Below are positions 4,531-28,673 of a stretch of DNA of 64,000 nt, piece by piece. The stretch is from an uncultured Thermotogaceae bacterium (GTDB taxonomy: Bacteria; Thermotogota; Thermotogae; Petrotogales; Kosmotogaceae). Each line of letters begins with the position of its first letter. Position 1 is the stretch's first letter. The notes under the pieces are model-generated. The model saw nothing but the letters and a program-made list of their open reading frames with translations. It did no database searches and was not told the DNA's origin. A program made the translations under genes and the position numbers. Location: assembly GCA_964441735.1 (NCBI GenBank), contig CAYTVB010000001.1, positions 1,164 to 65,163 on the forward strand, written 5' to 3'.

Positions 4531-5947
4531 ACGTTACCAATACTTCCTCAAATGCTTCTACTACCTCTGGATCAAATTTCGTACCTTCATCTTTTTTGAT
4601 TTTATCCAGTGCATATTTCATGCTGAGACCTTCTCCACAGGGTTCGGGTAACACATAGCCCATGTAGCTGGAAACAAGAGAAACAATCTTCGATCTTAAA
4701 GATAGCTTTTCCCCTTTTAGACCATCAGGAAAACCTTTTCCATCAAAACGTTCATGATGATGTCTAACGATATCACACACCAGTTCAAAATCACCTATTC
4801 TTTTAAACATCTCTTCACCGGTGATGGGATGTTTACGATAGAATTCCTCATTGTCATATCTTTTTTTATACTCATAATCAGTTACAAAGACCGTTCCCAG
4901 ATCTACTGCAAGCAATCCAAGCTCTATAGCTTCTAACTCTTCTTTAGAAGTGATCCCCAGTTTTTGAGCGGTTAACAACGCCAGTTCGGTATAATATTCG
5001 ATATCCATCTCATAGTCAAAAAACCTTTTGTAAACACTTGTTGAAAACTCTTGCATCAACCTCCTAAGCTTTAGATAACTCTTTTCTTTGATAGTAGAAA
5101 GTTCTATATTTAATTTTTCGATATCTTTCTTCAAAGAACGAATGGTATCTTCATTTTTACTTTTCTGATAGCGCAAATCATCCAAAAATCTATTGAGCGA
5201 TTCTATATCCTCTATATTGCTTGAAAAACTCTCTCTATGGCTTTTAACCATTCCAATGCCTTTTATTATTTCTTCCAATACCATTGAAGTTCTATCTATA
5301 AAACTCTCAAAATACCATAATAAAATTGTTGCAGTTAGTGCACCAATAAAAACAATCCAGAAAAACAGAGGAGGGATAATATATCCTATACCCAGGGTTA
5401 AATCGTTAGTTAGTTTATATTTAAAGTAATATGTAAGTCTGTTTTTTGTAAAATCTAGAGCACGTGGTTCTACTGCAATTCTTCCTTTTATTGATGTGTT
5501 AAGAATATTTCCATTTGAATCTGCCAGATACCATATAATATCGTCAGTGACTGAAAAAATATGTGTAATCATTCTTAGAGGAACCTCAACCAAAACCTTT
5601 CCGTTTTCCGTATTAACGATTTTTTTGAAGCTGTTTTCATTGATAAATAATCCTTCACCAAATGCCAGCTCTTCTCCAGCAAAGACTTTTTCCATTAGAA
5701 TCCCTTTAACGGTATTATTTTCTACTGGATTGGTGATAACTCTGCTATTATGAAGGTTATCAAATGCATTGTTAAGCGTTATAACAAACTCTTCTTTGTA
5801 ACGCATTGTATGTGTTTGTGAAAAACTCATAAATGTAAAAACCATAGCAATTAGAAAGCCTACAATGCACAATGTAATGATTATTCGTATAACTATTTTT
5901 GTTTTGTTTAACCTGTTAAGACCTCTTTTTAAGCTTAGTCTTCCCAA
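4523..5947 (-). CDS. Membrane sensor protein with degenerate HD-GYP domain
   Basis: N-terminal TM, an extracytoplasmic region, a second TM and a coiled coil. The C-terminus has HHHERFDGKGFPDGL. TTG start 9 nt after GGAGGA. Overlaps the upstream gene by 13 nt. Confidence 0.8.
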   Translation of the reverse strand: MGRLSLKRGLNRLNKTKIVIRIIITLCIVGFLIAMVFTFMSFSQTHTMRYKEEFVITLNNAFDNLHNSRVITNPVENNTVKGILMEKVFAGEELAFGEGLFINENSFKKIVNTENGKVLVEVPLRMITHIFSVTDDIIWYLADSNGNILNTSIKGRIAVEPRALDFTKNRLTYYFKYKLTNDLTLGIGYIIPPLFFWIVFIGALTATILLWYFESFIDRTSMVLEEIIKGIGMVKSHRESFSSNIEDIESLNRFLDDLRYQKSKNEDTIRSLKKDIEKLNIELSTIKEKSYLKLRRLMQEFSTSVYKRFFDYEMDIEYYTELALLTAQKLGITSKEELEAIELGLLAVDLGTVFVTDYEYKKRYDNEEFYRKHPITGEEMFKRIGDFELVCDIVRHHHERFDGKGFPDGLKGEKLSLRSKIVSLVSSYMGYVLPEPCGEGLSMKYALDKIKKDEGTKFDPEVVEAFEEVLVTSK

Positions 5948-6942
5948 ATTCCCGTATCCTCCAATTTAATAATTTGATAATCTCTGTTGGAGAAAAATGA
6001 TTCTGTTATACCAAATTCTCCATCATAGCCATCAAAATAGGTGTTTTTAACTTCATTGAATGCCTTCTGTAAGTCATATCTATAATGCGACAGTATATAG
6101 TTAGCTACAATTAGGGCATTATAGGTACCAACAAAGTTTACAGATTTAGGCTTTTCTTCAGGCATCCGGGCAATCGGTACGAAAAACTTCAAATCTTTAA
6201 TGTTTTCTCTATCAAATAATCTCAGATCGTTGTTAAATGCGTACTCTGTTGCATAAAAATTACCCTCATAACCTTCTTTGCGAAGCATCGACATCAGAAT
6301 TCCCGTCGATAAGGCATCGCTGAAGGAAATAATCCCATCACAATCTTTCATCTCTTCATTTAATTCAATTTCATTTCTGTTTGAAATCTTCTGGATTCCT
6401 GCAATTTTTCCATTGTACTCAAGTCTGAAGTGATCAAGAATTTCTGTGGAAAAGGTTTCATTTATTTCATCGACGAGAATGTAAACCTTCCAGATGTTAT
6501 CCCTTTCAACGGTTCTTGCCAGTCTGTTTGCTCTTAAGCTATTAGGTAAATTCATGGTTAAAAACCTTCCATTAAAACCTACAATAGATCCGGATGTTAC
6601 TGTTGGAGAAATGACAAAAATATTCTTATTATCTCTCATATATGGAATTAACTGATTTGCATCCTCACTGGTTCTGGGTCCAATAATCAAAATGGGCCTT
6701 TTTATAACCAGCGTTTCCATTACACTTTCAATAAAACCTCTTTCGTAATAATATACAGGTACATTTATACTAAAAGAGGTTCTTTCAGCATATGTATTAA
6801 GTGCTTTTTCCATCTCCTTGTTGCCATCACTAATTATTATCATATTGGGGGCATTCAGAAAAAACACAACTGAAATAACTGAAAACAGAAGTATTGATAC
6901 AAGTATTGTTATAAATAGAGTCTTATTACTAAAAAATTTCAT
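5935..6942 (-). CDS. Membrane-anchored type-1 periplasmic-binding-fold protein (LivK/ANF-receptor-like)
   Basis: N-terminal TM helix. IIGPRTSEDANQLIPY...VISPTVTS pattern of Leu/Ile/Val-type binding proteins. Start lies 1 nt after the upstream stop (TGA-A-ATG). Confidence 0.6.
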   Translation of the reverse strand: MKFFSNKTLFITILVSILLFSVISVVFFLNAPNMIIISDGNKEMEKALNTYAERTSFSINVPVYYYERGFIESVMETLVIKRPILIIGPRTSEDANQLIPYMRDNKNIFVISPTVTSGSIVGFNGRFLTMNLPNSLRANRLARTVERDNIWKVYILVDEINETFSTEILDHFRLEYNGKIAGIQKISNRNEIELNEEMKDCDGIISFSDALSTGILMSMLRKEGYEGNFYATEYAFNNDLRLFDRENIKDLKFFVPIARMPEEKPKSVNFVGTYNALIVANYILSHYRYDLQKAFNEVKNTYFDGYDGEFGITESFFSNRDYQIIKLEDTGIWED

Positions 6943-6943
6943 T

Positions 6944-7930
6944 TCAATCGCCTACAGGTTCCGGATTGAAGAAACGAACGCTTTTATTTGAAGAACCATC
7001 TTCTTTAAAACTAATAATTCCAGCATAACCTTCAAAGGAATATTTTTCAGGGGAAGAGAAAAAATCTTCAGGTCGTATATTCTCCCTGTACAGTTCTTCT
7101 ATCACTTTGAACGCTTCATATCCTCCTATATAATTTGGATCCATTTCTTCCACTGAAACGCCTGGTGAGACAGCTATTCCAACTTTTACTTTGCTAACAT
7201 ACTGACCGCCGAAATCAAAAAAGTCCGTCCCAACAGAATAATCCACAGCGTAATATTTCAGACCCGTCATATGCTTTTCAAGCCTTTTCAAAATCACACC
7301 GGTTTTTTTGGGATTCATAATAAGAAGAGCTGCATCTGCCTCTACAGCCTTTTCAAGAGGGATTTCTACGTTAAAAGGATCCTCCACAGCTATAACCTCA
7401 ATAACCTCTCCTATAAATTTTTCGATAAAAAGTTCCGCAAAGTAGTTATTGTAAAGCCTGTTAACCGTTCCTTTGAAAATTAATATCTTTTTCATACCGT
7501 CTTTAGCAGTTTCTTCAGTAAATGCTTTAACAATAAGATCATCAGAAACACCCAGCGTGCAGAAATGATTACTTTTCCCGATAACTTTAGGTGAAGTCAC
7601 CGCAGATGCTATTGCATACAGGTCATACCTTTCAAGTAACGGAATCAGAGATAAAGCATGTGAACTTGTTTTTGGTCCAACAATTATCTTTACCCCGTTG
7701 TCAACAAATTCCTTTAACGATTCTTCAAAATTCTTTTCGTTTATTGTTTGGGAAACGATTTTTATATCTGAATTTGTATTACTTTTGGCATCTTCAACAC
7801 CTTGAATGGTTCTCGAACCAACTTCGTGTAAAACACCTATTACTGGATGTCTGAAGCCCATGAAAATTAAGAAAAATGAAATAACGATAGTTACTACAAA
7901 AAGACTGATTATTAATTTTCTTTTGAGCAT
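6944..7930 (-). CDS. Membrane-anchored type-1 periplasmic-binding-fold protein (LivK-like), paralog of 5935-6942
   Basis: N-terminal TM helix. IVGPKTSSHALSLIPL...AIASAVTSP pattern. First gene of a three-gene operon. Confidence 0.6.
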   Translation of the reverse strand: MLKRKLIISLFVVTIVISFFLIFMGFRHPVIGVLHEVGSRTIQGVEDAKSNTNSDIKIVSQTINEKNFEESLKEFVDNGVKIIVGPKTSSHALSLIPLLERYDLYAIASAVTSPKVIGKSNHFCTLGVSDDLIVKAFTEETAKDGMKKILIFKGTVNRLYNNYFAELFIEKFIGEVIEVIAVEDPFNVEIPLEKAVEADAALLIMNPKKTGVILKRLEKHMTGLKYYAVDYSVGTDFFDFGGQYVSKVKVGIAVSPGVSVEEMDPNYIGGYEAFKVIEELYRENIRPEDFFSSPEKYSFEGYAGIISFKEDGSSNKSVRFFNPEPVGD

Positions 7931-8048: not shown

Positions 8049-9380
8049 TTATATTTTATACTGTTCAATAAAAGAATCCAATATCTGCTCGAGCGTTGGT
8101 TCTCCAATTTCCTGAAGCTCGTATCTAACTCTAACTGCAGGTTTATCAATGTCTATAACCCTTCTGAGATCAATTGGGGTTCCTATTATCACAAGATCAG
8201 CATCTGACTTGTTAATCGTTTCTTCCAGCTCTTTCATCTGTTTATCGCCATAACCCATAGCTGGCAAGATTTCACTTAAGTGGTTATATTTCTCGTAAGT
8301 GTCTACTATTGAGCCGACAGCATATGGCCTTGGATCAATTATTTCTCTTGCCCCATATTTCCTAGCTGCCACCCATCCTGCACCATATTCCATGCCTCCA
8401 TGAGTTAATGTAGGTCCATCTTCAACAACGAGAACTTTCTTTCCCTTAATTGATTTGCTGTTTTCAACTACAAGCGGTGATGCAGCATCAACTACTGTTG
8501 CATCAGGATTGTATTTTGAAATGTTTTCTCTAACTTCGTCTATACCTTCTGCACTGGCTGTCTCTTCTTTGTTTATAACAACGACATCTGCCATCATGAG
8601 GTTTGCCATTCCTGGATAATAACCAATCTCATGTCCGGGTCTGTGTGGATCAGCAACGGTTATATAAAGATCGGTATGATAGAAAGAGAAGTCATTGTTA
8701 CCGCCATCCCAGAGAATAACATCTGCGTCTTCTTTTTCTGCTTCTCTTAAAATTGCCTCATAATCAACACCAGCATAAACAATTGAACCTCTATCAATAT
8801 GCGGTTCGTATTCTTCGCGCTCTTCAATGGTACATTCGTGTTTATCGAGATCAGAATAATCAGCAAATCTTTGTACCTTCTGCTTTACCAGGTCACCATA
8901 TGGCATGGGATGTCTTATGGAAACTACCTTTTTACCTTTTTCTCTTAGGATATCAAGTACCCTTCGTGTAGTCTGACTTTTTCCACAACCCGTTCTTACA
9001 GCACATACAGAAATAACGGGCTTTGAAGATTTCACCATAGTTTTGTCAGGACCCAGCAATACGAAATTTGCACCGTTTGCAAGAACGACCTGTGCCCTCT
9101 CCATCACATATTGATGTGGTAAATCACTGTAAGAAAGAACGACATCATCAACTTTATAATCTTTTATCAGTTCAGGAAGCCTGCTTTCAGATAAAATGGG
9201 AATTCCATCAGGATAGTTTTTGCCTGCGAGTTCTGCAGGATACTTCTTGTCATCGATGCCTGGAATCTGAGTTGCTGTAAACGCTACAACTTCATAATCA
9301 TCGTTATCACGATAAAACGTGTTGAAATTATGAAAGTCTCTACCTGCTGCACCGAGTATCAATACTCTTTTCTTTGACAC
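8049..9380 (-). CDS. COG2403-type P-loop protein, cyclic 2,3-diphosphoglycerate synthetase-like
   Basis: 443 aa with LILGAAGRDFHNFN, a Walker A-like RTGCGKSQTT, RHPMPYGDL, EEREEYEP and WDGGNND blocks that I recall from this family. GTG start after GGAGGTGA. Confidence 0.6.
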   Translation of the reverse strand: MSKKRVLILGAAGRDFHNFNTFYRDNDDYEVVAFTATQIPGIDDKKYPAELAGKNYPDGIPILSESRLPELIKDYKVDDVVLSYSDLPHQYVMERAQVVLANGANFVLLGPDKTMVKSSKPVISVCAVRTGCGKSQTTRRVLDILREKGKKVVSIRHPMPYGDLVKQKVQRFADYSDLDKHECTIEEREEYEPHIDRGSIVYAGVDYEAILREAEKEDADVILWDGGNNDFSFYHTDLYITVADPHRPGHEIGYYPGMANLMMADVVVINKEETASAEGIDEVRENISKYNPDATVVDAASPLVVENSKSIKGKKVLVVEDGPTLTHGGMEYGAGWVAARKYGAREIIDPRPYAVGSIVDTYEKYNHLSEILPAMGYGDKQMKELEETINKSDADLVIIGTPIDLRRVIDIDKPAVRVRYELQEIGEPTLEQILDSFIEQYKI

Positions 9381-9855: not shown

Positions 9856-9884
9856 TTGAAAGAGACCTGCCACTGTGCTAGAAT
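9856..9884 (+). promoter_or_regulatory. Sigma-70-type promoter of tRNA-Pro
   Basis: TTGAAA (9856-9861), a 17-nt spacer, then TAGAAT (9879-9884). The tRNA begins 8 nt downstream. Confidence 0.6.
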
Positions 9885-9892
9885 TATATTTG

Positions 9893-9968
9893 CGGGGAGT
9901 AGCGCAGATGGAAGCGTGTCTGCATGGGGCGTAGAAGGTCGCTGGTTCAAGTCCAGTCTCCCCGACCA
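9893..9968 (+). tRNA. tRNA-Pro (anticodon GGG), CCA encoded
   Basis: Hand-folded cloverleaf. Acceptor CGGGGAG/CTCCCCG, D stem GCGC/GCGT, anticodon stem TCTGC/GTAGA with loop ATGGGGC, T arm GCTGG-TTCAAGT-CCAGT, discriminator A plus CCA. Confidence 0.9.
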
Positions 9969-9972
9969 AAAA

Positions 9973-9998
9973 GCGGAGGAAATATCCTCCGCTTTTTT
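9973..9998 (+). terminator. Rho-independent terminator (copy 1, inside the direct repeat)
   Basis: GCGGAGGA-AATA-TCCTCCGC followed by TTTTTT. Confidence 0.75.
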
Positions 9999-10021
9999 CT
10001 TTTTTGTATTTACAGTCTTAT

Positions 10022-10160
10022 TTATTCAATTGTTATCAGGATATCGTCCATTATATATGGTTCGTCCTTTGTTCCACCGCCCAAATGATATGCTTTGGGT
10101 TCAGGGTACAGGTCGCGATACTTTGCTTCGATACCATCAAAGTCCCAGGTAGTTATATAG
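10022..10160 (-). pseudogene. Duplicated 3' fragment (stop plus last 45 codons) of the GH13 amylase gene
   Basis: Lies in repeat copy 1 and matches 12232-12370, which encodes ...YPEPKAYHLGGGTKDEPYIMDDILITIE stop. No upstream coding continuation past 10160. Confidence 0.85.
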
Positions 10161-10478
10161 TTTAATTTTTTAGTTTAAGTAAAATTTCCTATGTTCATTC
10201 TTCCTGAAGAACACTTTACAGAAACTATGTAAAGACTACATGCATTACTGATCTACGATTTTATACAATAAATTGAATATACATTTACGCTGCAATAATT
10301 ATCGAGAGGCTTTTAGTATATGGATACAATGTGAAGTGAAGTATTTATCGAAATCAAAAAAGCTGCTTTTTTGTTGGTTGGGTGTTTGCAGTAATCTATT
10401 AATTCTCATAGATAGGCATAAAATCATATTTACCAAAGCTAAAATAAATACTGAAATTTATTTACTATAAATTTCCAT

Positions 10479-10501
10479 ATACCATCAATTGATGGTATAA
10501 T
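10479..10501 (+). promoter_or_regulatory. Perfect 20-bp palindrome (putative antitoxin operator) overlapping a TATAAT -10 box
   Basis: ATACCATCAATTGATGGTAT at 10479-10498. TATAAT at 10496-10501. Lies 24 nt upstream of the toxin ORF. Confidence 0.55.
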
Positions 10502-10524
10502 GAAGTTGGGTTGTTTAGAAAGGA

Positions 10525-10872
10525 TTGAGGGTATTGTCTTTAGGGATAAAGCTTTTTTTGGAAAAAGTACGAAAATTAATTGAAGATGAGAAATATGAAT
10601 TTCTTAAAGGCAGATCAAAAAATAGAGAAACTTTAATAAAACTAGGTTTGACCGTTGAAAATGCGATAAATATTGTCTTTAACTTAGAAGAACGGGATTG
10701 TATTTCGGGTCCTAATGAAGAACTGAATAGCAATGAAAAAGAAGGAATCATTTATATTTTTATAAAACAACTAGAGGATCAAGAATTCCCGATAAAGCTA
10801 TATATTAAAATAAAAAAAGTAAAAGAGGAAGATATGATCGTTATTATTTCTTTTCACGAAACTTTGGGGTGA
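10525..10872 (+). CDS. MqsR-like toxin (putative mRNA interferase)
   Basis: 115-aa ORF. LEKVRKLIE..., KLGLTVENAINIV and C-terminal IVIISFHE parallel the E. coli MqsR layout (VKKLV..., ELGL..., LIVSFKE). Toxin-first order. Start is uncertain (TTG 10525, 10534 or 10558). Confidence 0.55.
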   Translation: MRVLSLGIKLFLEKVRKLIEDEKYEFLKGRSKNRETLIKLGLTVENAINIVFNLEERDCISGPNEELNSNEKEGIIYIFIKQLEDQEFPIKLYIKIKKVKEEDMIVIISFHETLG

Positions 10873-11906
10873 TGTGCATGATTAAGATAACTAAAAAAAG
10901 AGAAAAGTTATTTTGCGATAACTGTAATGAATATACTGATTATAAAGTAATAAAACGCCAAGAACGAATTGAAATTAAAGATGAAACTATTTCAACAGAA
11001 AGTAAAATAGCTATTTGCAAATCCTGTGGTAATGAACTTTTTGAACCTTACCTAGAAAATGAGAATTTAAAGCAAGTTTATCGTGAATATGCAAGAAGAA
11101 AGAATTTGGTTTTGCCTGATGAAATTAAAAAAATAAGAAAAAAATATGGCGTAAGTCAAAAGCTTTTTGCGATTATTCTTGGTGTAGGAAAAGCAACTAT
11201 AGAAAGATATGAAACAGGAGCTATACCTAGTTCTCTAATTAGTGAATTAATAAAAAAATCTAAGGAACCTCAGTTTTTCTTAGATCTCCTAGAAAAAAAC
11301 AAAGAAAATATTTCTAGAAGTGATTATAAAGAAATAAAGTCAAGAGTACAAAGGTTTATTAATGAAAAAAATCCAGTAAAAGAAATGACAAAGAAAATTA
11401 CAGAGATAATAATGGGACCAATTGAAGATATAGACAAGCTTGTAGGAATAATTACGGAGATTTTGCTTTCTCTTCGTAATAAAGGCTTTGAGTATTCTTA
11501 CCAGACAAAATTATATAAAATGATGTGGTTTGTAGAAGACGAATATAAAAATAGTTATGGTAAACCTTTATTGCCTATAAATTTCGCTCATGCTCCAAAT
11601 GGACCAATCCCAAATATCGGAATAGTTAACATAAATAAAGGTTACCGCTACTTACTGTCTTATTTGGAAGAACGTGGAGCTGTAGAAATCATAACAAATG
11701 AAGAAATTATTAACGGGAAACCTAAAGAAACAACTAAAATAGTGCTTAAAGATGAAAGTATGACTAAATACATTTCTGAAGATGAAAAAGAAATTGTTAA
11801 GAATGTTGTTGAAAAATATGGCCATTTAACTGGTAAAAAATTATCTGATATTTCTCATGAAGACGCAAGGTATAAAAACACAAAAGATGGAGATCCTATT
11901 GAGTAG
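10872..11906 (+). CDS. Antitoxin-like fusion: MqsA-type Zn ribbon + XRE HTH + DUF4065/Panacea-like C-terminal region
   Basis: CDNC...CKSC zinc ribbon. HTH KKYGVSQKLFAIILGVGKATIERYETG. Then KLYKMMWFVE, GKPLLPINFAHAPNGPIP and LSDISHED, as in DUF4065. The start overlaps the toxin stop (TGATG). ATG 10878 is an alternative. Confidence 0.65.
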   Translation: MCMIKITKKREKLFCDNCNEYTDYKVIKRQERIEIKDETISTESKIAICKSCGNELFEPYLENENLKQVYREYARRKNLVLPDEIKKIRKKYGVSQKLFAIILGVGKATIERYETGAIPSSLISELIKKSKEPQFFLDLLEKNKENISRSDYKEIKSRVQRFINEKNPVKEMTKKITEIIMGPIEDIDKLVGIITEILLSLRNKGFEYSYQTKLYKMMWFVEDEYKNSYGKPLLPINFAHAPNGPIPNIGIVNINKGYRYLLSYLEERGAVEIITNEEIINGKPKETTKIVLKDESMTKYISEDEKEIVKNVVEKYGHLTGKKLSDISHEDARYKNTKDGDPIE

Positions 11907-12177
11907 TAATTTCTTTTAATTGTAAAGTAGTTTGAAGATAGTTAATGAGCAACTGCAAAACATGAAATACTGGAAATTTCCATAAAAGCACTTTTAATGG
12001 CAGCCTTTTTTGTAAATAATAAACAAAATCCAAAAAGCTTTAATGATCAAAATTAAATAGAGTTAGCCCTATAATCATTAAGCCTTCCATCAAAACCGAA
12101 ACAATAAAGAAGAAATCAAGGAAGTAAGAGAAGAACAAAAGAATAATAGTGGAAAAATGTTTAAAATCATCGAGATT

Positions 12178-12370
12178 AAAAAGCGGAGGAAATATCCTCC
12201 GCTTTTTTCTTTTTTGTATTTACAGTCTTATTTATTCAATTGTTATCAGGATATCGTCCATTATATATGGTTCGTCCTTTGTTCCACCGCCCAAATGATA
12301 TGCTTTGGGTTCAGGGTACAGGTCGCGATACTTTGCTTCGATACCATCAAAGTCCCAGGTAGTTATATAG
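12178..12370. repeat. 193-bp direct repeat, copy 2
   Basis: Identical to 9968-10160. Contains the terminator and the genuine 3' end of the amylase gene. Confidence 0.95.
12183..12208. terminator. Bidirectional hairpin terminator (copy 2), serving the amylase gene
   Basis: GCGGAGGA-AATA-TCCTCCGC flanked by AAAAA on one side and TTTTTT on the other. Confidence 0.7.
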
Positions 12371-14745
12371 ATATTATATCCTTCAAGGCTTTCCGGTCTA
12401 TCAAGAAGTTCACCGGAGATAATCAATGTTACTTCGTTATTCATTTTGTTAGTTTTAACAAGCGGTGTTGGTGAGATTGGTGTTCCAAAATTATCAGGTC
12501 CACTTCCACTAGATGAATAGGCTACTATTGACCATCCGTTTGCGAATATAAAATAATCCCAGTCATAATCTCCAGGCATTGTTGCATTTAATTTTGGTAG
12601 AACGGTTGCTCCCTCTTTATCAGGATCATCTATAAAAACCTGGAATGTGACATGATCGAAACCATTTTGAGGACTCCATGAAGTGGTAAGATTTTTGGTT
12701 TTCATGGTAATGTTTACACTCGAACCTATTTTCTTCACTGTGACTCCCAGTAAATCCATCTGTTCATTGAATGTTATGTCTGTCGGATATTTGTAATCAC
12801 CGGTTGGTCCATGATCATCACCTTCAGGATCTTCTACCCGGGCAATTGTTTCTTCTGGAATATCCAGTACTACATTGTAGTCTTCAGAGTATTTAGAGTT
12901 TGTTCTCTTCTCTCCGTAAACCTTGAATAATATCGTATGGATTCCTGGATCAAATTTTGAGATATTCCACTCATATGACCATTTATTGTTTTTGACCGTA
13001 ACTTCAACTGCCTGATCAATACGTCTATCAAATATTATCCTCACTCTCTCTGCATTTTTTGTTGTCCCTGTTATTTCATAATTTGACGTTATTTTCATTC
13101 CGTCCTCAAGCTCGGGATAAATCTCTACTGAATGCTCATCAACCTCTCTTTTTTCTGATGTTGCCATACCAACATAAACACAGCGAGGATTCAAAACAAG
13201 ATCAATTTCTCCATCAGCATCAGTTGAATAGCTTTTTGCCAGTGTAGCTTCAGTAAACAAAGGTTTCACTACCGCGCCTGGATCTAAACCTGTTTCAAGA
13301 TTTGCAAGAATACGTCGTTCACTGGAGGTGTTGAAAAACACAAACGCAGTGTTTTCTCCATCATTTAGCTTGTAGGCAAAAACTCCTGGTCCATTGGGAT
13401 TTTCCTTCAATACTTTAACTGAGCCATATCGAAAAATCGGGTAATTCTTTCTCAATTCAGTTAATTCTTGAATATACTTGTACAATTCAAAGTCCCTGTT
13501 GTAGTTATCTTTATCTCCAGATGCATATCCTTCCTTGAACATGGCTGCTCTCGTTTCAGAAAAACCCTGTTCTGTTCCGTAGTAAACCGTAGGAATGCCC
13601 GGGATGGTAAATATAAATGACAGTGCCTGTTTTAGGTTTATCAAACCAGCACCCTGAAGAAATCGTTCCATATCGTGATTGTCCACAAAGGTAACCATTC
13701 GTTCGGGATTTTTATAGATCTTCTCTCTCTGTTCCAGTCTGTAAGCAAGATTTGACGTTGCTTTTCCTTCTTTGAAAACCTGTCTCAAAGCTATATTTAA
13801 TGGGAAATCAAGCATTGCATTCATTCCGTCATCAAAGTACTCTTTTATCTTCTTTTCTGCTGCGTTATCAAAAGCATCAGTGCTTACCCAGGCTTCTCCA
13901 AAGGTTATGAATGTATTTTCATCTTTTCCCGTTTCCCTGGCTGCTTCATATATGCCATCCTCACCCTTCAAGAATTCTTTCCAGAATTCGTGTGGGACGT
14001 AAATTACTGTATCTATTCTAAAACCATCTATGCCCACTTCTTTTATCCAGTGGGTATAGGAATCCTTTAAAGCTTCAATAACTTCAGGATTTTCCGTATT
14101 GAGATCATCAAGACCAGACATCTGGTAATTCAAGCGCTGTTCATCACTTTCAAAATTTGTAATATCTGGCGTCCAGTGATAGATATTTTCATCTTTATCC
14201 TCGTTGTAATTATTTAATGAAAAAGGATATTGAGTGGGAGCACTTGTTGGAGCGCTGTTTTCGTTTAGCTTGAATTCTCCATTAACAAATCGAAAGTAAT
14301 CACCAACATGATTGGTAACTATGTCCTGAATGACATATATGCCTCGTTTGTGAGCTTCGTTAACTAGTTTCTTATAAAGCTCCGTGTCACCAAAATGTTC
14401 ATCTATTTTTTTAAAATCACGTGCCCAGTATCCATGATATCCACCATAGTTTACCCATGGATTCCACCATTGATTGGCAATGGGAGGTGTTATCCATATT
14501 GCAGTAATTCCCAATTCGTCGAGATAATCAAGTTTGTTTATCAGTCCCTGCAGATCTCCACCATTGTAATGTGCGTTGTCAATTCCATATTCACCTTCAT
14601 TAAAATTATCATTTGTCTGGTCTCCATTTGCAAAACGGTCCAACATTAACATATATATAACCTGATCTTCCCATTGTGGTTCTGCAGCATACACTGAACC
14701 AACAATGACAGCAATCATAAACAATAAGATAATTTTCTTATACAC
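12232..14745 (-). CDS. Secreted GH13 alpha-amylase family enzyme with glucodextranase-like C-terminal module
   Basis: Signal peptide. GH13 blocks DRFANGD, GYHGYW, GFRIDTV, GEAW and FVDNHD. A long C-terminal beta-rich extension. GTG start after AAGGGGGT. Confidence 0.85.
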   Translation of the reverse strand: MYKKIILLFMIAVIVGSVYAAEPQWEDQVIYMLMLDRFANGDQTNDNFNEGEYGIDNAHYNGGDLQGLINKLDYLDELGITAIWITPPIANQWWNPWVNYGGYHGYWARDFKKIDEHFGDTELYKKLVNEAHKRGIYVIQDIVTNHVGDYFRFVNGEFKLNENSAPTSAPTQYPFSLNNYNEDKDENIYHWTPDITNFESDEQRLNYQMSGLDDLNTENPEVIEALKDSYTHWIKEVGIDGFRIDTVIYVPHEFWKEFLKGEDGIYEAARETGKDENTFITFGEAWVSTDAFDNAAEKKIKEYFDDGMNAMLDFPLNIALRQVFKEGKATSNLAYRLEQREKIYKNPERMVTFVDNHDMERFLQGAGLINLKQALSFIFTIPGIPTVYYGTEQGFSETRAAMFKEGYASGDKDNYNRDFELYKYIQELTELRKNYPIFRYGSVKVLKENPNGPGVFAYKLNDGENTAFVFFNTSSERRILANLETGLDPGAVVKPLFTEATLAKSYSTDADGEIDLVLNPRCVYVGMATSEKREVDEHSVEIYPELEDGMKITSNYEITGTTKNAERVRIIFDRRIDQAVEVTVKNNKWSYEWNISKFDPGIHTILFKVYGEKRTNSKYSEDYNVVLDIPEETIARVEDPEGDDHGPTGDYKYPTDITFNEQMDLLGVTVKKIGSSVNITMKTKNLTTSWSPQNGFDHVTFQVFIDDPDKEGATVLPKLNATMPGDYDWDYFIFANGWSIVAYSSSGSGPDNFGTPISPTPLVKTNKMNNEVTLIISGELLDRPESLEGYNIYITTWDFDGIEAKYRDLYPEPKAYHLGGGTKDEPYIMDDILITIE

Positions 14746-15534: not shown

Positions 15535-17334
15535 ATGAAGAAAATATTTATTATTGCGCTTATCTGTTTTTCAATGCTCATTTTTGCCAATGGGTACGAT
15601 GTAGAAACACTTATGAAAAATATTGAGAATGATCCTGGTGACTATGAATCCCTTTCAAAACTGCTTGAGATTTATGAAAACGATGAAGACTATTATGGCT
15701 ATATAGACACTGTGATATCTGTTATCAACAGAATCGACGAGCCATCAAACAAGATATTGCCTTTCGTTCTACAGGCAGCCCGTTATGCTTCTGAAGAATA
15801 CCTGGATCAGGAAGAGATTGACTTATACACATATTTTCTCGTAAACAATCCAAATCTCGGAATTGTACACGAATTCTTTTCGGAATTGTATTATTTGTAC
15901 TTGAGTGATGCCATTAAAAAGGATGCAATACTCGAAATTGCAGAAGCTTTCGGAGATGTAGATGAATTTTTAGAACAAAGATATATGGAATATGAAGGTA
16001 CATACTATACTGATGTGACCAGGTTACTGGGTGAGTTATTGTTTGAAAGAGGAAAAACTGAATATATTATTCCATACATAATATCTGTCTTAAAGGAAGA
16101 AAACTTCGATGAAGTAAAAAGATTACTCAATGAGAATAAAGAAGCGCTGCAGGAAGAACCTGATTATTATTTCATACTGGGTATAATTAATACGTACAAC
16201 AAAGATTTAGAATCAGCTTTAGAGAATTTCACATACGGAAGATCTCTATCATCCAGTAACAAATTTGCTGAGTATCTTGATCTTATGTACTATGTTGAAG
16301 TCCCTGAGTATATTATTGATATCTATGATGCAGTTATAACTGCGGATTCCTCACAAACATTGCAGAATAATCTCCAGGAATATGTTCGTAAGCATTCTGA
16401 GATTCACTGGATTTCAAAATATATCAAAGATCTACCTGAACCTGTACCAATTTCTGAATTGCTTTCAGGTTATGAGGAGTTGTTCTTGATAACTTCATTT
16501 AACCCCGATAGTGAAAAGATACAACTCCTTTTACTCAACAGTGATGGTAAGCAAATTTTTAGATTTTCCAATGTTATCTATGGTAATTTCTTTAGCGATG
16601 GAATTATCTATTCATCAGGTTTTGAACAAGAAAAAATTGTATTCGAAGGAGAAACAAAAGAAACCTGGACAAATTACTCTTATTTTATTTCATCGCCTTT
16701 AAAAGATTCTTTGATACTGGTAAATGATTACGATGGAATACTTACATGTCTAAATGAAGATCTTTCAGTAAAATGGAACCTGGAAGCTGATTACTACGAT
16801 TACAACTCTTCCTGGTCTGCTAACGGAAAGTATTTTACTTTCTGTGATTACGACTACAATTTCTATATCGTAGATACATTATCCGGAACAATAATTGAAA
16901 CCTTTTCATCGGATCTCTATTATGAACAGGTGTTGGTTAGAAATAACGGAGAGATTTATATAATAAACAGCGATGGTAATATCGAAGGAATAAAACCCAA
17001 CAAACCTCTTTTAACCTCTAATACTGCCGTTTGGGCGTCATTTATAGATGATGAAACATTAATGTATCTTGAATCAGTTGAAGAACTCTTCCAGGACATT
17101 ATGAGGGTTAGAATTCATATCTATTCCCTTGAAAATCATACTGATCAAGTAATCGAAGAGTCAATGATTCTCGTTCCTGCACCGATTACCCAGATTGTCC
17201 ATAAAGACAATAAACTCTTCTACACAACATTTGAAGAAATGGCATCAGAATTCAAATATTATGATGTTGACACCGAAGAAACAAGAACACTTTTTACACT
17301 CGATCAGATGTTACTTTTTCCAGATATTTATTGA
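15535..17334 (+). CDS. Secreted hypothetical protein (helical repeat N-half, beta-propeller-like C-half)
   Basis: Signal peptide MKKIFIIALICFSMLIFA. Good RBS AGGAGGTGA. No catalytic motif recognised. Confidence 0.6.
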   Translation: MKKIFIIALICFSMLIFANGYDVETLMKNIENDPGDYESLSKLLEIYENDEDYYGYIDTVISVINRIDEPSNKILPFVLQAARYASEEYLDQEEIDLYTYFLVNNPNLGIVHEFFSELYYLYLSDAIKKDAILEIAEAFGDVDEFLEQRYMEYEGTYYTDVTRLLGELLFERGKTEYIIPYIISVLKEENFDEVKRLLNENKEALQEEPDYYFILGIINTYNKDLESALENFTYGRSLSSSNKFAEYLDLMYYVEVPEYIIDIYDAVITADSSQTLQNNLQEYVRKHSEIHWISKYIKDLPEPVPISELLSGYEELFLITSFNPDSEKIQLLLLNSDGKQIFRFSNVIYGNFFSDGIIYSSGFEQEKIVFEGETKETWTNYSYFISSPLKDSLILVNDYDGILTCLNEDLSVKWNLEADYYDYNSSWSANGKYFTFCDYDYNFYIVDTLSGTIIETFSSDLYYEQVLVRNNGEIYIINSDGNIEGIKPNKPLLTSNTAVWASFIDDETLMYLESVEELFQDIMRVRIHIYSLENHTDQVIEESMILVPAPITQIVHKDNKLFYTTFEEMASEFKYYDVDTEETRTLFTLDQMLLFPDIY

Positions 17335-20092: not shown

Positions 20093-20228
20093 AACTCCAC
20101 CTCCCTTTTTTATTATACAGCTTTGAACTAATAATCAATAAAAACCGTTAGATAGAGTCCTTAAGAATACTTCTATTTCTATTCATTAGTTGTATACTTA
20201 GTTTGAATAAAATTTGGGGGTGAGTATA

Positions 20229-20666
20229 ATGAAAAAGTTTTTTATCCCGGGTATTATATTGTTAATTGTTTTTCTACTCACTGGTTGTCCAAACATATTC
20301 TATAAATATTCACTAACAACAAACACATATCATTGTAGCTCTGATTTACTTGAAAAGGCCAGAGTAGAATTTGGTTCTACTGCGGTTTTAGCTGATTGGA
20401 AAGATATCAAAGCTTCTTATGGAAATAATATTGCAGCGTTTTGTAATAACATTGGACTGGAAGTTGGAGAAATTAATAGCGCCTTTGTTACCCGAAACGG
20501 GGACTATAAATATGAAAACACAGATCGCCAGTATTATATATCGAGATTTAATGGTGATAAACCCGGTGGTTATCTTGCCCACGATGACATTGACAACAAC
20601 TATCTTTGTTTGGGTTCATGGGATGACTGTACATTTAAAATACTGGTAAAATACAGGATATTTTAA
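20229..20666 (+). CDS. Lipoprotein, hypothetical
   Basis: Lipobox LLTGC after a hydrophobic leader. ATG 20229 follows GGGGGTGAG. Confidence 0.55.
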   Translation: MKKFFIPGIILLIVFLLTGCPNIFYKYSLTTNTYHCSSDLLEKARVEFGSTAVLADWKDIKASYGNNIAAFCNNIGLEVGEINSAFVTRNGDYKYENTDRQYYISRFNGDKPGGYLAHDDIDNNYLCLGSWDDCTFKILVKYRIF

Positions 20667-26639: not shown

Positions 26640-27572
26640 ATGAAGGAAACAACTGAAAATATCACCGTTGTTTCTACCAGAAAGTTTGTGAAAGTTTCTA
26701 AAACTGCTTTTTTTCTTGCAATACTAATCGGTATACTGGCTGTTTTTTCATCTTTTATGGGGATTTTCTGGATAACCGAAGGTGAATCTTATACCTTTGA
26801 AACACTTAGAGGAGAAACAGTAAAGATATTTGGAAAAGGTGTTTATAGGTATGACAGTGTTTTCCTGGCAAGTGCTTTTCAGGGTCAGGACGTGGTAATT
26901 TTATTTCTTGGTGTTCCACTTTTAATGGTTTCATTATTTGCCTATCGAAAGGAATCGTTACGCTGGTCTCTTTTTTTAAGCGGTGTTCTTGCATTTTTCC
27001 TTTATGTTTATACCTCTACTGCATTTGGAGCAGCTTATAATCAATTATTTCTTGTTTATGTTAGTTTGTTTTCACTGAGCTTTTTTGTTCTTATCCTTAT
27101 TTTTTCTTCTATTAAACTTGAAAATCTGTACAAAGATGAAATTAATAACTTACCCAGGCTGGGACCGGCGATCTTCATGTTCGCAAGTGGATTAGTCACT
27201 CTTTTTGTTTGGCTCGAACCGTTAATAAAGTCAATAATAGAAGAGACTCCACCCGAGTTACTGGGAGCTTATTCAACAATGGTAACAGATGCACTTGATC
27301 TTGGAATAATTACACCTCTAACCATAATTTCAGGAGTATTAATCCTAAGGAAAAAGCCTTTGGGCTATAAGATTGCTTTTCCTTTACTTGGAATAATTCT
27401 TCTTTTATTGCCAACTATTACACTGACTACTTTTATTCAGCTATATAATGGGGTTACTTTTACAACAGCTGAAATTATAGGTCCCATTGCAGGATTCACT
27501 GCATTGGGCGCTTTGTCGTTAGTTATCATGATAATTCTATTACGTAAAATACCTTCAAAAACCGATTCATAA
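26640..27572 (+). CDS. Integral membrane protein, hypothetical
   Basis: 310 aa with about 8 hydrophobic helices. RBS AAGGGGGAG. Confidence 0.55.
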   Translation: MKETTENITVVSTRKFVKVSKTAFFLAILIGILAVFSSFMGIFWITEGESYTFETLRGETVKIFGKGVYRYDSVFLASAFQGQDVVILFLGVPLLMVSLFAYRKESLRWSLFLSGVLAFFLYVYTSTAFGAAYNQLFLVYVSLFSLSFFVLILIFSSIKLENLYKDEINNLPRLGPAIFMFASGLVTLFVWLEPLIKSIIEETPPELLGAYSTMVTDALDLGIITPLTIISGVLILRKKPLGYKIAFPLLGIILLLLPTITLTTFIQLYNGVTFTTAEIIGPIAGFTALGALSLVIMIILLRKIPSKTDS

Positions 27573-27614
27573 AACAACATATTATAATTTTGAAATTATC
27601 TCAGGAGGATTGAC

Positions 27615-28673
27615 ATGAAAAGAGTTACTTTAGTTTTACTGATCGTGATGGCAATGTTCTCAGGATGTTCATTAATTCTAAAGGTTCCAGAGATGGGAGA
27701 AGTAATTAATGAAGACATTGTAGTAAAATCACCTGCTCTTAAGTACTCATTACTGGACAGCCTTCATGAAATATATGTGGCAAATGAATTGTCGCCAGAA
27801 AAATGGGAAGATTATTACTCTGAGGCAGATCCTTCTGGAAAAGAGCACTATGACTGGTTAATAAAAACGTATGGTGAAATGTCTGATAGCATGAAGAAAA
27901 CACTATCTTATATTTTCGAAAGAGTGCACTTATGGAAGCTCATGAATATATCAACAGAACTAACTGATGAAGCAGATATTAATGATATAGTAAATCTTTA
28001 CAGGAGTTCATGGTTCGATCTGCCACCACTTGTAAGAATTAAATTGATACAGCTGCTTCCTGAGTTTTACAATGAACATTTCGAAGAATATTTTGATGTT
28101 AACCAAGAAATATTTACAACATTGGCTTCATCTATGACTGAAGAAGCAATCGAATATCCAAATCCCTTTGAATTCATGGAAGAACTAACAGGAATTGATC
28201 TTCCCGGTGAATACTCATGTATGTTCTACTACACCTTCAGGAAAGTCGGCGCTTTTGGTTTTACATATGGAAGTATAAAAATTTCAACATTGCAGAGAAA
28301 TGTCGATGACATCAGCAAACTTTTTTTCACACCTTTACATGAATACGGGCACGATTTCTTTCAAACCTTCACCAAAAAAAGTGATTTCAAAGAACTTGCA
28401 GAAGACCTTAAAGAAAACGACATCAGTTTTTACGAGTACTGGAAGAATGATGAAGGCTTAAAACAAAGCTACAGCTGGGCGGGTTTTTGTGAAGAGAATC
28501 TTGTTGAAGGTTTTGCCAAGTTCCTGAGAGAAGAATATTATGGAAAAACTGATCATAAAGAGAACTATTATTATGACCTTGATTTTTATGAATATCTTAA
28601 AGAAATAGAATTTAATCCTGATGAAATCAGCTTAAAAGAAGCATCTTTCAGCTTTTATGAGGAAGTTATGTGA
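27615..28673 (+). CDS. Lipoprotein with HExxH motif (putative metallopeptidase-like)
   Basis: Lipobox MFSGC. HEYGH at TPLHEYGHDFF. RBS AGGAGG. Confidence 0.55.
   Translation: MKRVTLVLLIVMAMFSGCSLILKVPEMGEVINEDIVVKSPALKYSLLDSLHEIYVANELSPEKWEDYYSEADPSGKEHYDWLIKTYGEMSDSMKKTLSYIFERVHLWKLMNISTELTDEADINDIVNLYRSSWFDLPPLVRIKLIQLLPEFYNEHFEEYFDVNQEIFTTLASSMTEEAIEYPNPFEFMEELTGIDLPGEYSCMFYYTFRKVGAFGFTYGSIKISTLQRNVDDISKLFFTPLHEYGHDFFQTFTKKSDFKELAEDLKENDISFYEYWKNDEGLKQSYSWAGFCEENLVEGFAKFLREEYYGKTDHKENYYYDLDFYEYLKEIEFNPDEISLKEASFSFYEEVM

Follow-up and report, generated by a model that had tools for sequence, protein, structure and literature searches.

A toxin–antitoxin cassette between perfect 193-bp direct repeats downstream of tRNA-Pro in an uncultured Thermotogaceae bacterium

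Organization of the tRNA-Pro/amylase locus

The window analysed here is a stretch of 64,000 nucleotides of contig CAYTVB010000001.1 from an uncultured Thermotogaceae bacterium. [quoted passage not shown] The features of the locus are as follows.

9856–9884, + strand: predicted tRNA-Pro promoter-like site, TTGAAA-17-TAGAAT with TG (consensus scan)
9893–9968, + strand: tRNA-Pro, anticodon GGG, CCA encoded (ARAGORN; Rfam tRNA 55.2 bits)
9968–10160, no strand: left 193-bp copy, with terminator 9968–9997 plus T-run and an orphan amylase 3′ fragment
10161–10471, no strand: left non-coding arm, 27% GC, no match in anything searched
10470–10507, + strand: putative TA promoter/operator, an inverted repeat with arms 10470–10488 and 10489–10507
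10534–10872, + strand: toxin gene, 112 aa, probably MqsR-like, equal to P0020 in NCBI
10872–11906, + strand: antitoxin gene, 344 aa, predicted MqsA-type zinc-binding domain, HTH and C-terminal Panacea (SocA-like) domain, equal to P0001
11907–12177, no strand: right non-coding arm, 27% GC, no match in anything searched
12178–12370, no strand: right 193-bp copy, with terminator 12178–12207 and the functional amylase 3′ end
12232–14745, − strand: GH13 alpha-amylase with Glucodextran_C module, 837 aa, intact

The two copies of the repeat are the same at 193 of 193 bases with an offset of 2,210, and the DNA between them spans 2,017 bp at 10161–12177; the gain at this locus also includes the second 193-bp copy. 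When the whole window was compared with itself by megablast, this pair was the sole repeat found (E about 1e-98), meaning that the 64 kb contain no other repeat down to a length of about 28 bp. The GC content was 28.2% for the insert, 38.3% for the repeat, 37.9% for the amylase gene and 35.0% for the window, and the boundaries between 28% and 38% were sharp. Both the perfect direct repeats and the low-GC insert of foreign composition, as given in a preliminary description of this DNA, were thus confirmed. No inverted repeats were found at the insert termini, and the microhomology at either insert junction was 1 nt or less.

The first base of the repeat was found to be the final A of the tRNA-Pro CCA, as had been claimed, and it is the sole tRNA base inside the repeat. 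Each copy opens with a hairpin, AAAAAGCGGAGG-AAAT-ATCCTCCGCTTTTT, and a T-run comes next; this terminator is predicted to be bidirectional because an A-run and a T-run flank it. The copies continue with the amylase stop codon, 45 codons and 1 nt, so that the earlier account of their content (a shared hairpin terminator with the stop and last 45 codons of the amylase gene) holds. In the left copy, the amylase fragment has its stop at 10022–10024 and 45 codons on the − strand; the frame, read by hand, meets a TAA five codons upstream of 10160 and contains no start codon, and the fragment is therefore considered non-coding. The right copy supplies the 3′ end of an amylase that aligns to its orthologues over residues 1–837 with 86–88% identity, and its terminator (12178–12207) is now common to the TA operon (+) and the amylase gene (−). 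The tRNA, the terminator and the amylase gene are all intact, and the insertion is functionally scarless, as originally described.

The left arm (10161–10471) showed no match in plasmids, phages, related loci or TA-family loci, and its 65-aa ORF (10273–10470) had no Pfam or PHROG match. The right arm contains a 7-codon ORF stub (ATG at 12157) that reads into the repeat. For the arms, the ideas of a structured RNA and of an origin were both rejected, the fold z-scores being 0.0 (left) and −1.1 (right) and the Rfam hits sub-threshold and terminator-driven only. Separately, a dif-like (Xer) site near 12370, judged by eye only, was dropped, as it bore only a weak resemblance to the dif consensus.

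The toxin–antitoxin cargo

The insert ORFs match TA domains alone, in line with the initial claim that a TA pair is the only cargo. The toxin gene comes first, and the antitoxin start overlaps the toxin stop (TGATG). The product of 10534–10872 is probably an MqsR-like toxin, as judged from its sequence. It matched the Pfam family MqsR_toxin (PF15723) with an E-value of 2.3e-4 and 21.9 bits, which is under the gathering score of 26.2; the same model matches 2 of the 6 toxin family members. When aligned with E. coli MqsR by hhalign, the two could be matched end to end with an E-value of 0.006, yet with a probability of 6.2%, and the C-terminal motif Y-x-K-I...SF(K/H)E of the toxin was lined up with E. 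coli MqsR. For the toxin, a profile search of the PDB did not return MqsR, the single-sequence AF2 model (pLDDT 69) had no significant PDB fold match, a word-index search returned the toxin itself alone, and PADLOC held no family for the pair. Every homologous antitoxin has a conserved partner of ~110 aa encoded upstream.

The domain assignment of the antitoxin is supported by scores above the cut-offs for TIGR03830 (99 bits versus 61.8), PF15731 (37 versus 30), HTH_3 (25.6 versus 23) and Panacea (PF13274; 61.4 versus 25.7, residues 215–333), and two CxxC motifs are present in the P0001 sequence. Its nearest relatives are 45% identical or less. The Panacea domain PF13274, by which PanA-type antitoxins are recognised, is thus found here, and the order of zinc-binding domain, HTH and Panacea has been validated by experiment in B. 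fungorum MqsR:PanA (PMC10440598). The MqsR/MqsA gene order and an antitoxin with zinc-binding domain and HTH are present, as is a palindromic putative operator in the promoter.

The inverted repeat in front of the operon overlaps the extended −10 (TGGTATAAT) of a promoter with the structure TTTCCA-18-TATAAT with TG. The operator core ATACCATCAATTGATGGTATAAT corresponds to 10479–10501, and the 22-mer TACCATCAATTGATGGTATAAT inside this core was found exactly in 22 viral/metagenome loci. The palindrome over the promoter is kept in the homologous loci and is presumably the site at which the antitoxin represses the promoter of its own operon.

The empty site and the relatives of the cassette

Four related Kosmotogaceae genomes (L001, L002, L003 and L009; amylase 86–88% aa identity) have an empty site, in which tRNA-Pro(GGG) is followed by a single bidirectional terminator and the amylase 3′ end. 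Colinearity with the window extends over >20 kb in three of them (L002, L003 and L009), where the overlap between the two alignment blocks on the subject genome equals the repeat exactly. The 193-bp repeat is orthologous to the single copy in all four, and the mature tRNA-Pro differs from theirs at one position (alignment column 55, T in the window and C in the relatives). Since the four relatives have the empty site, it is the window that gained the 2,017 bp and a second 193-bp copy, and the proposed insertion into the tRNA-Pro/amylase locus is thereby upheld. The collections searched contained no conspecific genome, no amylase of >88% aa identity (best 87–88%), no second genome with the cassette and no close copy of it. 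Exact-protein look-ups returned no record for the amylase, the antitoxin start variants (GTG/ATG 10878/P0001), the NT5C protein or the pyrophosphatase, and a look-up by cluster yielded no accession. A repeat-specific 25-mer was absent from the metagenome contigs scanned, and the viral contigs scanned contained neither the terminator 20-mer, nor the tRNA-Pro 3′ 25-mer, nor relatives of the antitoxin.

All the relatives found are metagenome-assembled genomes (MAGs), so the source of the window is probably a MAG too. This bears on the possibility that the chromosome is empty and that a separate 2,210-bp circle, either released by excision or maintained as a very small replicon lacking Rep, was threaded in during assembly through the shared 193 bp. 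Both topologies would give the same four junctions, the repeats are perfectly identical and the cassette was found in no second genome. However, a 2.2-kb circle with no replication gene or recognisable origin is unlikely to persist and had no PLSDB match, the arms contain no repeats or structure, and the circle would itself have to derive from an integrated copy. A 193-bp repeat within a contig of 121 kb, the length of the source contig, is, moreover, presumably resolved by read pairs or long reads in most cases. Such an ambiguity of assembly is considered quite unlikely.

The comparison of the insert with plasmids and viruses, which the preliminary description had proposed, gave no match in PLSDB and a sole DNA match to the TA module of Marinitoga phage MPV1 (MPV1_17 to MPV1_19, OZ018341.1). 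The nucleotide identity was 69% over parts of the module, the toxins and antitoxins were 38% and 44% identical in amino acids, respectively, and the operator/promoter core was the same at 23 of 23 nt. Judged by these sequences, the TA module of the cassette is a member of the gene pool of Thermotogota temperate phages represented by MPV1. The MPV1 module lies inside the 43.7-kb genome of a siphovirus, between a sigma-factor gene and the phage tRNA-Pro(TGG)/terminase region, and its antitoxin is annotated as two ORFs, whereas here the module occurs alone with unrelated flanks and the antitoxin is one 344-aa ORF. In the phage, the module lies ~24 kb from the integrase end and away from the prophage ends, and the integrase is annotated as a serine recombinase. 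A tie between the phage tRNA-Pro and the host tRNA-Pro was rejected, as the sequences are unrelated and the anticodons are TGG and GGG, respectively. Group 1 proviruses of Thermotogota are reported to insert beside tRNA genes, with tRNA-Pro as the neighbour in two cases, of which one is in Mesotoga (bioRxiv 10.1101/2020.11.07.368316).

Adjacency to a tRNA or duplication of host DNA as a property of the whole TA family was also rejected, since no tRNA lies near the other cassettes, whose repeats are all intergenic, short and diverged. In L016, one homologous cassette, the flanks are 36-nt terminator-like direct repeats that are 86% identical and 2,127 bp apart; these come after two different small ORFs and resemble ordinary similar terminators. 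A new transposition-like mechanism, with very long (193 bp) target-site duplications or targeting of intrinsic terminators, could be read from these repeats together with the terminator hairpin that opens the repeat of the window. This idea is barely plausible, as it rests on one instance with no enzyme candidate, the element ends are not conserved and the arms are unique, and such duplications are absent in other family members, the L016 repeats looking like ordinary terminators.

Origin of the insertion and likeness to known systems

Genes for an integrase, an excisionase, a transposase or a Rep protein are absent from the insert, and the window ORFs of 110 aa or more gave no hit to a recombinase or transposase domain; the domain and repeat scans thus agree with the earlier statement that the insert lacks an integrase, a transposase, a replication gene and terminal inverted repeats. 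The flanking direct repeats and the empty site in relatives are features of an integrative element, but the element-encoded integrase is absent, and as attL/attR the repeat is atypical in being unusually long, perfect and host-like in composition. An IS or DDE transposon is not indicated, with no transposase, no terminal inverted repeats and a duplication of 193 bp. As for an integron cassette, no recombinase was found in the window and no attC-like imperfect inverted repeat at the cassette end in a general repeat scan; of plasmid traits there was no Rep domain and no PLSDB match, and the arms showed neither iterons nor unusual structure. An origin of the repeats by reverse transcription, as in LTRs, was dropped, the repeat being host single-copy sequence in the relatives.

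The cassette could still descend, as a remnant or a satellite, from a site-specific prophage or integrative element that encoded its own integrase, targeted the amylase 3′ end and brought a replacement 3′ end and terminator, and from which deletions left the TA pair alone; or it could be a CIME-like, integrase-less att-flanked element moved by an integrase encoded elsewhere in the genome. Direct repeats do bracket foreign DNA beside a tRNA, the repeat stops at the end of a transcription unit as expected of a gene-restoring segment, e14 in icd/icdC (~165 bp) shows that an element can bring a 3′ gene end with it, and the TA pair has an origin in the phage pool; TA modules typically outlast the decay of a prophage. 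Against this, neither the insert nor the 64-kb window yielded an integrase or excisionase, the 100% identity and host-like GC would need a very recent capture (the e14 repeats are ~92% identical), and at least one large deletion would be needed, or two if the TA module was internal as in MPV1. In addition, when a tyrosine integrase targets a tRNA gene, the resulting repeat normally extends into the 3′ part of the tRNA, whereas this repeat holds no tRNA sequence except the last A. We regard such an element as an unlikely source.

The explanation that we prefer, and to which we give about an even chance, is a genuine, recent, lineage-specific insertion-duplication by Campbell-type single crossover of a circle with captured host DNA. 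A circle of ~2.2 kb would have carried the foreign low-GC MqsR-like/MqsA-Panacea operon and a 193-bp piece of the same chromosome, and a single crossover within this piece, with RecA dependence as the simplest route, would give the order tRNA-Pro, 193 bp, cassette, 193 bp and amylase. Identical repeats of a host segment do flank the foreign DNA, and the segment is single copy in the uninserted state. This reading is favoured because the repeat is perfect, unique in the 64 kb and host-derived, and because the relatives have the empty site and synteny while mobility genes are absent. The host-like GC and 100% identity suggest that the repeat copy of the element was captured recently from the same chromosome, and with such a capture homologous recombination fits better than an old dedicated att site.

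The capture of the 193 bp was probably the result of a recent imprecise excision, in the lambda-gal manner, of a larger element at the tRNA-Pro 3′ end, for which an MPV1-like Group 1 provirus is the candidate parent; unequal sister-chromatid exchange followed by excision of the larger element would be an equivalent route. In this case, 12177/12178 would be the fossil element/host junction and 10160/10161 an illegitimate join. The capture step is favoured because the cargo comes from the phage pool and tRNA-adjacent Group 1 proviruses exist, and a repeat boundary exactly at the tRNA 3′ end is expected if the element/host junction stood there. The tRNA end is, however, also the start of the terminator, and the boundary could therefore reflect the end of a transcript or terminator instead of a former att junction. 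It counts against the capture that the searches revealed neither a circle nor a donor or parent element and that the insert arms match nothing, and the MPV1 module being far from the prophage end, a differently organised parent would be needed. Serine integrases, as the MPV1 enzyme is annotated to be, use short att sites with no long att homology and would not themselves yield a 193-bp repeat.

In a one-step origin, a linear fragment taken up by transformation or transduction would recombine illegitimately or with the help of homology: one end would be anchored by homology in the amylase/terminator region and the other joined illegitimately on the “wrong” side, which gives a duplication. Recombinase genes were not found, the microhomology of 1 nt or less at the junctions is compatible with end joining and natural competence is reported in Thermotoga, all of which are compatible with this route. 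Homology-facilitated illegitimate recombination, however, normally produces insertion-deletions and not clean duplications, a donor with the cassette already abutting the terminator would still be required and the boundary at the tRNA end is not explained by itself; we consider this course distinctly improbable. It is very improbable that the 2,210-bp unit is a minimal enzyme-less mobile module, cycling between circle and chromosome through host homologous recombination or a recombinase in trans, with the captured host piece as its “attachment site”, the TA pair punishing loss and spread among close relatives by transformation or transduction.

Because the homologous cassettes elsewhere have no tRNA linkage and no long host duplication, the event is seen as a one-off: the cassette is a real, tidy recombination product and not a new kind or class of mobile element. 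It is not self-mobile. RecA could delete it precisely between the repeats, and a stable toxin should poison the cells that lose it, which would explain its retention. The repeat-flanked cassette therefore offers a testable set-up for TA addiction, in which the repeats should delete the cassette at a measurable frequency. The locus is a clean natural case of a phage-type TA module that became chromosomal with no dedicated integration machinery, and its acquisition left the tRNA, the shared terminator and the neighbouring gene undamaged. If the capture model is true, it would document a specialised-transduction-like aberrant excision with homologous re-insertion in Thermotogota, a phylum known for extensive lateral transfer whose vehicles are still debated.

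Among the known systems, the predicted TA pair is most readily compared with MqsR:PanA of Bacillus fungorum and L. rossiae (Ernits et al. 2023, PMC10440598), with which it has in common the toxin-first order with overlapping stop and start, the antitoxin with two CxxC, HTH and C-terminal Panacea, and the palindromic operator over the promoter. The toxin here is very divergent, under the Pfam gathering score. CIMEs likewise consist of recombinase-less foreign DNA between direct repeats at a tRNA-adjacent site. The att repeats that bound a CIME are short sites, specific to a recombinase and inherited from an ICE or IME, whereas the present repeat is long, host-derived and perfect, with no cognate integrase known. 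In e14/phage 21 in E. coli icd, foreign DNA also lies between gene-3′-end repeats (~165 versus 193 bp) and the gene is kept intact, but e14 encodes intE and xisE and its ~92% identical repeats end at the stop codon, while the repeats described here lack an integrase between them, are 100% identical and continue through the terminator to the tRNA end. In comparison with the Campbell insertion-duplications of suicide plasmids and lambda-gal/bio-type transducing DNA, the present locus arose naturally, with a cargo of 2 kb, no vector functions and a putative circle; in common with them, it has identical repeats of a homologous segment around foreign DNA, an arrangement that homologous recombination reverses and that is scarless when the fragment has the 3′ end of the gene.

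Repeat, insert and the empty site in relatives

The cassette at 10161–12177 is bracketed by two copies of a 193-bp direct repeat, and the features at this locus are as follows.

9893–9968, tRNA-Pro(GGG), identified by ARAGORN and Rfam
9968–10160, left copy of the 193-bp repeat
10534–10872, toxin ORF of 112 aa, matching NCBI protein P0020
10872–11906, antitoxin ORF of 344 aa, matching NCBI protein P0001
12178–12370, right copy of the 193-bp repeat
12232–14745, minus strand, GH13 amylase with a Glucodextran_C module, 837 aa

The two copies are equal at 193 of 193 bases with an offset of 2,210 bp, and as the self-comparison of the whole 64-kb window returned no further repeats, the pair does not reflect background repetitiveness. 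Because tRNA-Pro ends at 9968, the left copy begins on the final base of its encoded CCA. At the start of both copies is the hairpin AAAAAGCGGAGG/CCTCCGCTTTTT, whose flanking A- and T-runs make it a bidirectional intrinsic terminator; beyond it lie the stop codon of the amylase gene and its final 45 codons. In the left copy the amylase frame is an orphan fragment; read by hand, it terminates at a stop five codons inside the insert. The GC content was found to be 28.2% for the insert versus 38.3% for the repeat and 37.9% for the amylase gene. Thus, the perfect repeats, their content and the low-GC, foreign nature of the insert, as claimed in a preliminary description of this DNA, were all borne out. 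The exact amylase protein was absent from a collection of 15 billion proteins, in which P0001 and P0020, encoded on the same 121-kb NCBI contig, are present; in the NCBI record its start may be annotated differently, or the gene may not have been called.

The comparison with related genomes that the preliminary description had suggested was made by scanning one genome per species with the amylase protein, and relatives with an unoccupied tRNA-Pro/amylase locus were found in four Kosmotogaceae/Thermotogota MAGs (L001, L002, L003, and L009; amylase 86–88% identical). In each of these MAGs, the amylase gene converges on tRNA-Pro(GGG), with ~55 bp and a single terminator hairpin separating the amylase stop from the tRNA. 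In whole-region alignments, L003, L009, and L002 were colinear with the window over >20 kb at 73–82% nucleotide identity. One aligned block ends at 10159 and the next begins at 12178; on the subject their overlap equals the repeat exactly, and the intervening 2,017 bp have no counterpart in these three loci. The empty site indicated that the lineage of the window gained the insert and the second 193-bp copy after its divergence from these relatives. The copies show 0 differences against ~20% divergence between species in the same region, so either the event was recent or homogenisation of the copies is ongoing. A conspecific genome was not found in the collections searched, the best amylase there having 87–88% amino acid identity.

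Toxin–antitoxin cargo and its relatives

Within the insert, neither an integrase, transposase or Rep gene nor an excisionase-like ORF was found, inverted repeats are absent from its ends, and its ORFs match toxin–antitoxin (TA) domains only; the preliminary description held for the integrase, transposase, replication gene, inverted repeats and TA-only cargo. When every ORF of at least 110 aa in the 64-kb window was scanned with Pfam, no recombinase, transposase or phage structural domain was detected, and the ORFs with family matches were housekeeping or transport genes. About 10 sizeable ORFs (150–599 aa) had no Pfam family above threshold, including those at 5935–7930, 8049–9380, 15535–17334, 20214–20666, 26640–28673, 29692–31128, and 61986–63236; the 443-aa ORF at 8049–9380 was also without an NCBIfam match, and the DNA there is colinear with related genomes. 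The non-coding arms of the insert (10161 to about 10466–10470, and 11907–12177) are not unusually structured and gave no match in anything searched. Neither the terminator of the repeat nor the tRNA 3′ end was present in IMG/VR viral contigs, and a repeat-specific 25-mer was absent from the metagenome collection. An empty chromosome accompanied by a free 2,210-bp circle would give the same four junctions as the assembled structure; a Rep-less 2.2-kb circle would, however, itself have to derive from an integrated copy, and such an assembly ambiguity is considered unlikely.

The toxin and antitoxin ORFs overlap at TGATG. The palindrome ATACCATCAATTGATGGTAT, a putative operator, precedes the operon and overlaps an extended −10 box, and the right copy of the terminator lies 271 nt past the antitoxin stop. 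The antitoxin scored 99 bits against TIGR03830 (cut-off 61.8), with two CxxC motifs and an HTH, and has a C-terminal Panacea/SocA domain (PF13274, 61 bits); on these matches its assignment to the MqsA family is clear. The toxin could be assigned to MqsR only weakly. It scored 21.9 bits with Pfam MqsR, under the gathering score of 26.2, and its profile-sequence alignment with E. coli MqsR ran end to end (E 0.006) at only 6% probability, lining up the C-terminal motif Y-x-K-I...S-F-(K/H)-E; neither a profile search of the PDB nor an AlphaFold model built from the single toxin sequence gave a match. The pairing of a ZBD-HTH-Panacea antitoxin and an MqsR toxin has experimental validation from Bacillus fungorum and L. 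rossiae, truncations of the B. fungorum system showed that the zinc domain neutralises the toxin, and Panacea was proposed as a sensor (PMC10440598). As judged from its sequence, the cargo adds a new and divergent member to the MqsR:PanA TA systems.

The cassette stands apart from everything closely related: in a set of 5.8 billion proteins the next-best antitoxin was 45% identical, and the toxin search retrieved only the toxin itself. When the insert was compared with plasmids and viruses, as the preliminary description had proposed, PLSDB gave no match, and the only DNA match among phage genomes was the TA module of the Marinitoga temperate siphovirus MPV1 (~69% nucleotide identity over parts of both genes), in which the 23-nt operator core ATACCATCAATTGATGGTATAAT is identical to that of the window. 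The 22-nt operator stretch TACCATCAATTGATGGTATAAT (10480–10501) has exact matches in 22 loci, 5 from IMG/VR and 17 from metagenomes, and the majority carry the same two-gene module at ~36–45% protein identity. In longer contigs, the module occurs within TA/defence islands beside RES-Xre, HepT-MNT, and KAP NTPase genes. The homologous TA loci examined showed no tRNA adjacency and no long host-DNA duplication, only short, diverged intergenic repeats.

Several features of individual loci were also noted. About 10 of the 22 operator-bearing loci had no tblastn match to the TA pair of the window, and in one of these 22 (L025) TACCATCAATTGATGGTATAAT lies ahead of a 174-aa ORF with a resemblance, judged by eye, to an HNH-type homing endonuclease. 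The island in Thermosipho LBEY01000022.1 (L015) contains RES-Xre, MqsR-PanA, HepT-MNT, KAP NTPase, and ATPase genes and looks like a cassette array, its cassettes being separated by repeated 45–130-bp intergenic elements; a TGTGAC-rich 45-mer there looks similar by eye to the stretch that directly follows the TA module in MPV1. In another compared locus (L016), a homologous cassette lies between two 36-nt direct repeats that look like terminators (86% identical, 2,127 bp apart), and each repeat comes after a different small ORF; the geometry echoes that of the window, and the repeats are probably ordinary similar terminators. GC-rich repeated elements (for example, GCGCCCTTCCCCCGCTCCCCACCC...GGGACCTGCAGTCCC) flank the TA-cassette region in two metagenome contigs (L042 and L035).

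L015, 7093–7226, 8006–8194, 8289–8333, 9566–9610, and 9638–9769, repeated intergenic elements
L016, 5422–5457 and 7549–7584, 36-nt direct repeats
L042, 661–756 and 4387–4481, repeated intergenic elements
L035, 867–924 and 2847–2904, repeated intergenic elements

In MPV1, a tRNA-Pro(TGG) (L014 7215–7286; OZ018341.1 10170–10241) immediately follows the homologous TA module. This shared neighbourhood was rejected as a link, as the phage TGG and host GGG tRNAs are unrelated in sequence and their common position is a coincidence.

Mechanism of insertion

Foreign DNA enclosed by identical host repeats, of which the empty site has one copy, is the signature of a single reciprocal crossover between the chromosome and a circle bearing that host segment (Campbell-type). 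The 193 bp on the incoming DNA is read as host DNA because it has host GC, is orthologous to the single copy of the relatives and is 100% identical, whereas the cassette beside it is 10 GC points lower. This argues for a recently captured fragment and homologous recombination rather than an old dedicated att site. Thus, of the two origins offered by the preliminary description, Campbell-type or site-specific at a long att, the scarless foreign insertion stood and the homologous route is preferred. A decayed or trans-mobilised site-specific element of the e14/icd or CIME type would fit the observed geometry, but it requires an integrase that is missing, extensive deletions and an att whose perfection and host-like character are implausible, and is somewhat doubtful. 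One-step homology-facilitated illegitimate recombination of a linear fragment appears quite unlikely. A new long-duplication transposition mechanism is very unlikely, because it would rest on one instance that lacks both an enzyme and conserved ends.

As regards the proposed capture of the host segment, one boundary of the repeat falls exactly on the 3′ end of tRNA-Pro. MPV1-like Group 1 Thermotogota proviruses have been reported next to tRNA genes, two of them, including one in the Kosmotogaceae genus Mesotoga, adjoining tRNA-Pro (bioRxiv 10.1101/2020.11.07.368316). A parent element at the tRNA-Pro end could have yielded the 2,210-bp circle by imprecise excision, in which a point inside the element (now 10161) became joined to host DNA (now 10160) 193 bp past the element's right junction, or equivalently by unequal sister exchange followed by normal excision. 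Homologous re-insertion of this circle would produce the structure seen in the window, in which 12177|12178 would be a fossil element/host junction. The searches did not find a parent element, and the internal rather than terminal position of the MPV1 TA module is a weakness of the capture proposal. The terminator also starts where the tRNA ends, and hence this boundary could have another cause.

Consequences and comparison with e14

The following consequences were drawn from what is known about recombination between direct repeats and about type II TA systems. The tRNA would keep its terminator, and the amylase gene its 3′ end and terminator, in agreement with the functionally scarless insertion described earlier, and the TA operon would acquire a terminator from the event. 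RecA could delete the cassette precisely between the repeats; cells losing it would face the longer-lived toxin, and the insertion would thereby be stabilised. The structure is a natural example of a known recombination outcome, and there is only a slim chance that it represents a minimal enzyme-less addiction cassette using a captured host segment as its attachment site. In e14 of the E. coli icd gene, the best-known element carrying a host gene 3′ end, the repeats are ~165 bp, ~92% identical and end at the stop codon, whereas those of the window are 193 bp, 100% identical and include the terminator up to the tRNA end.
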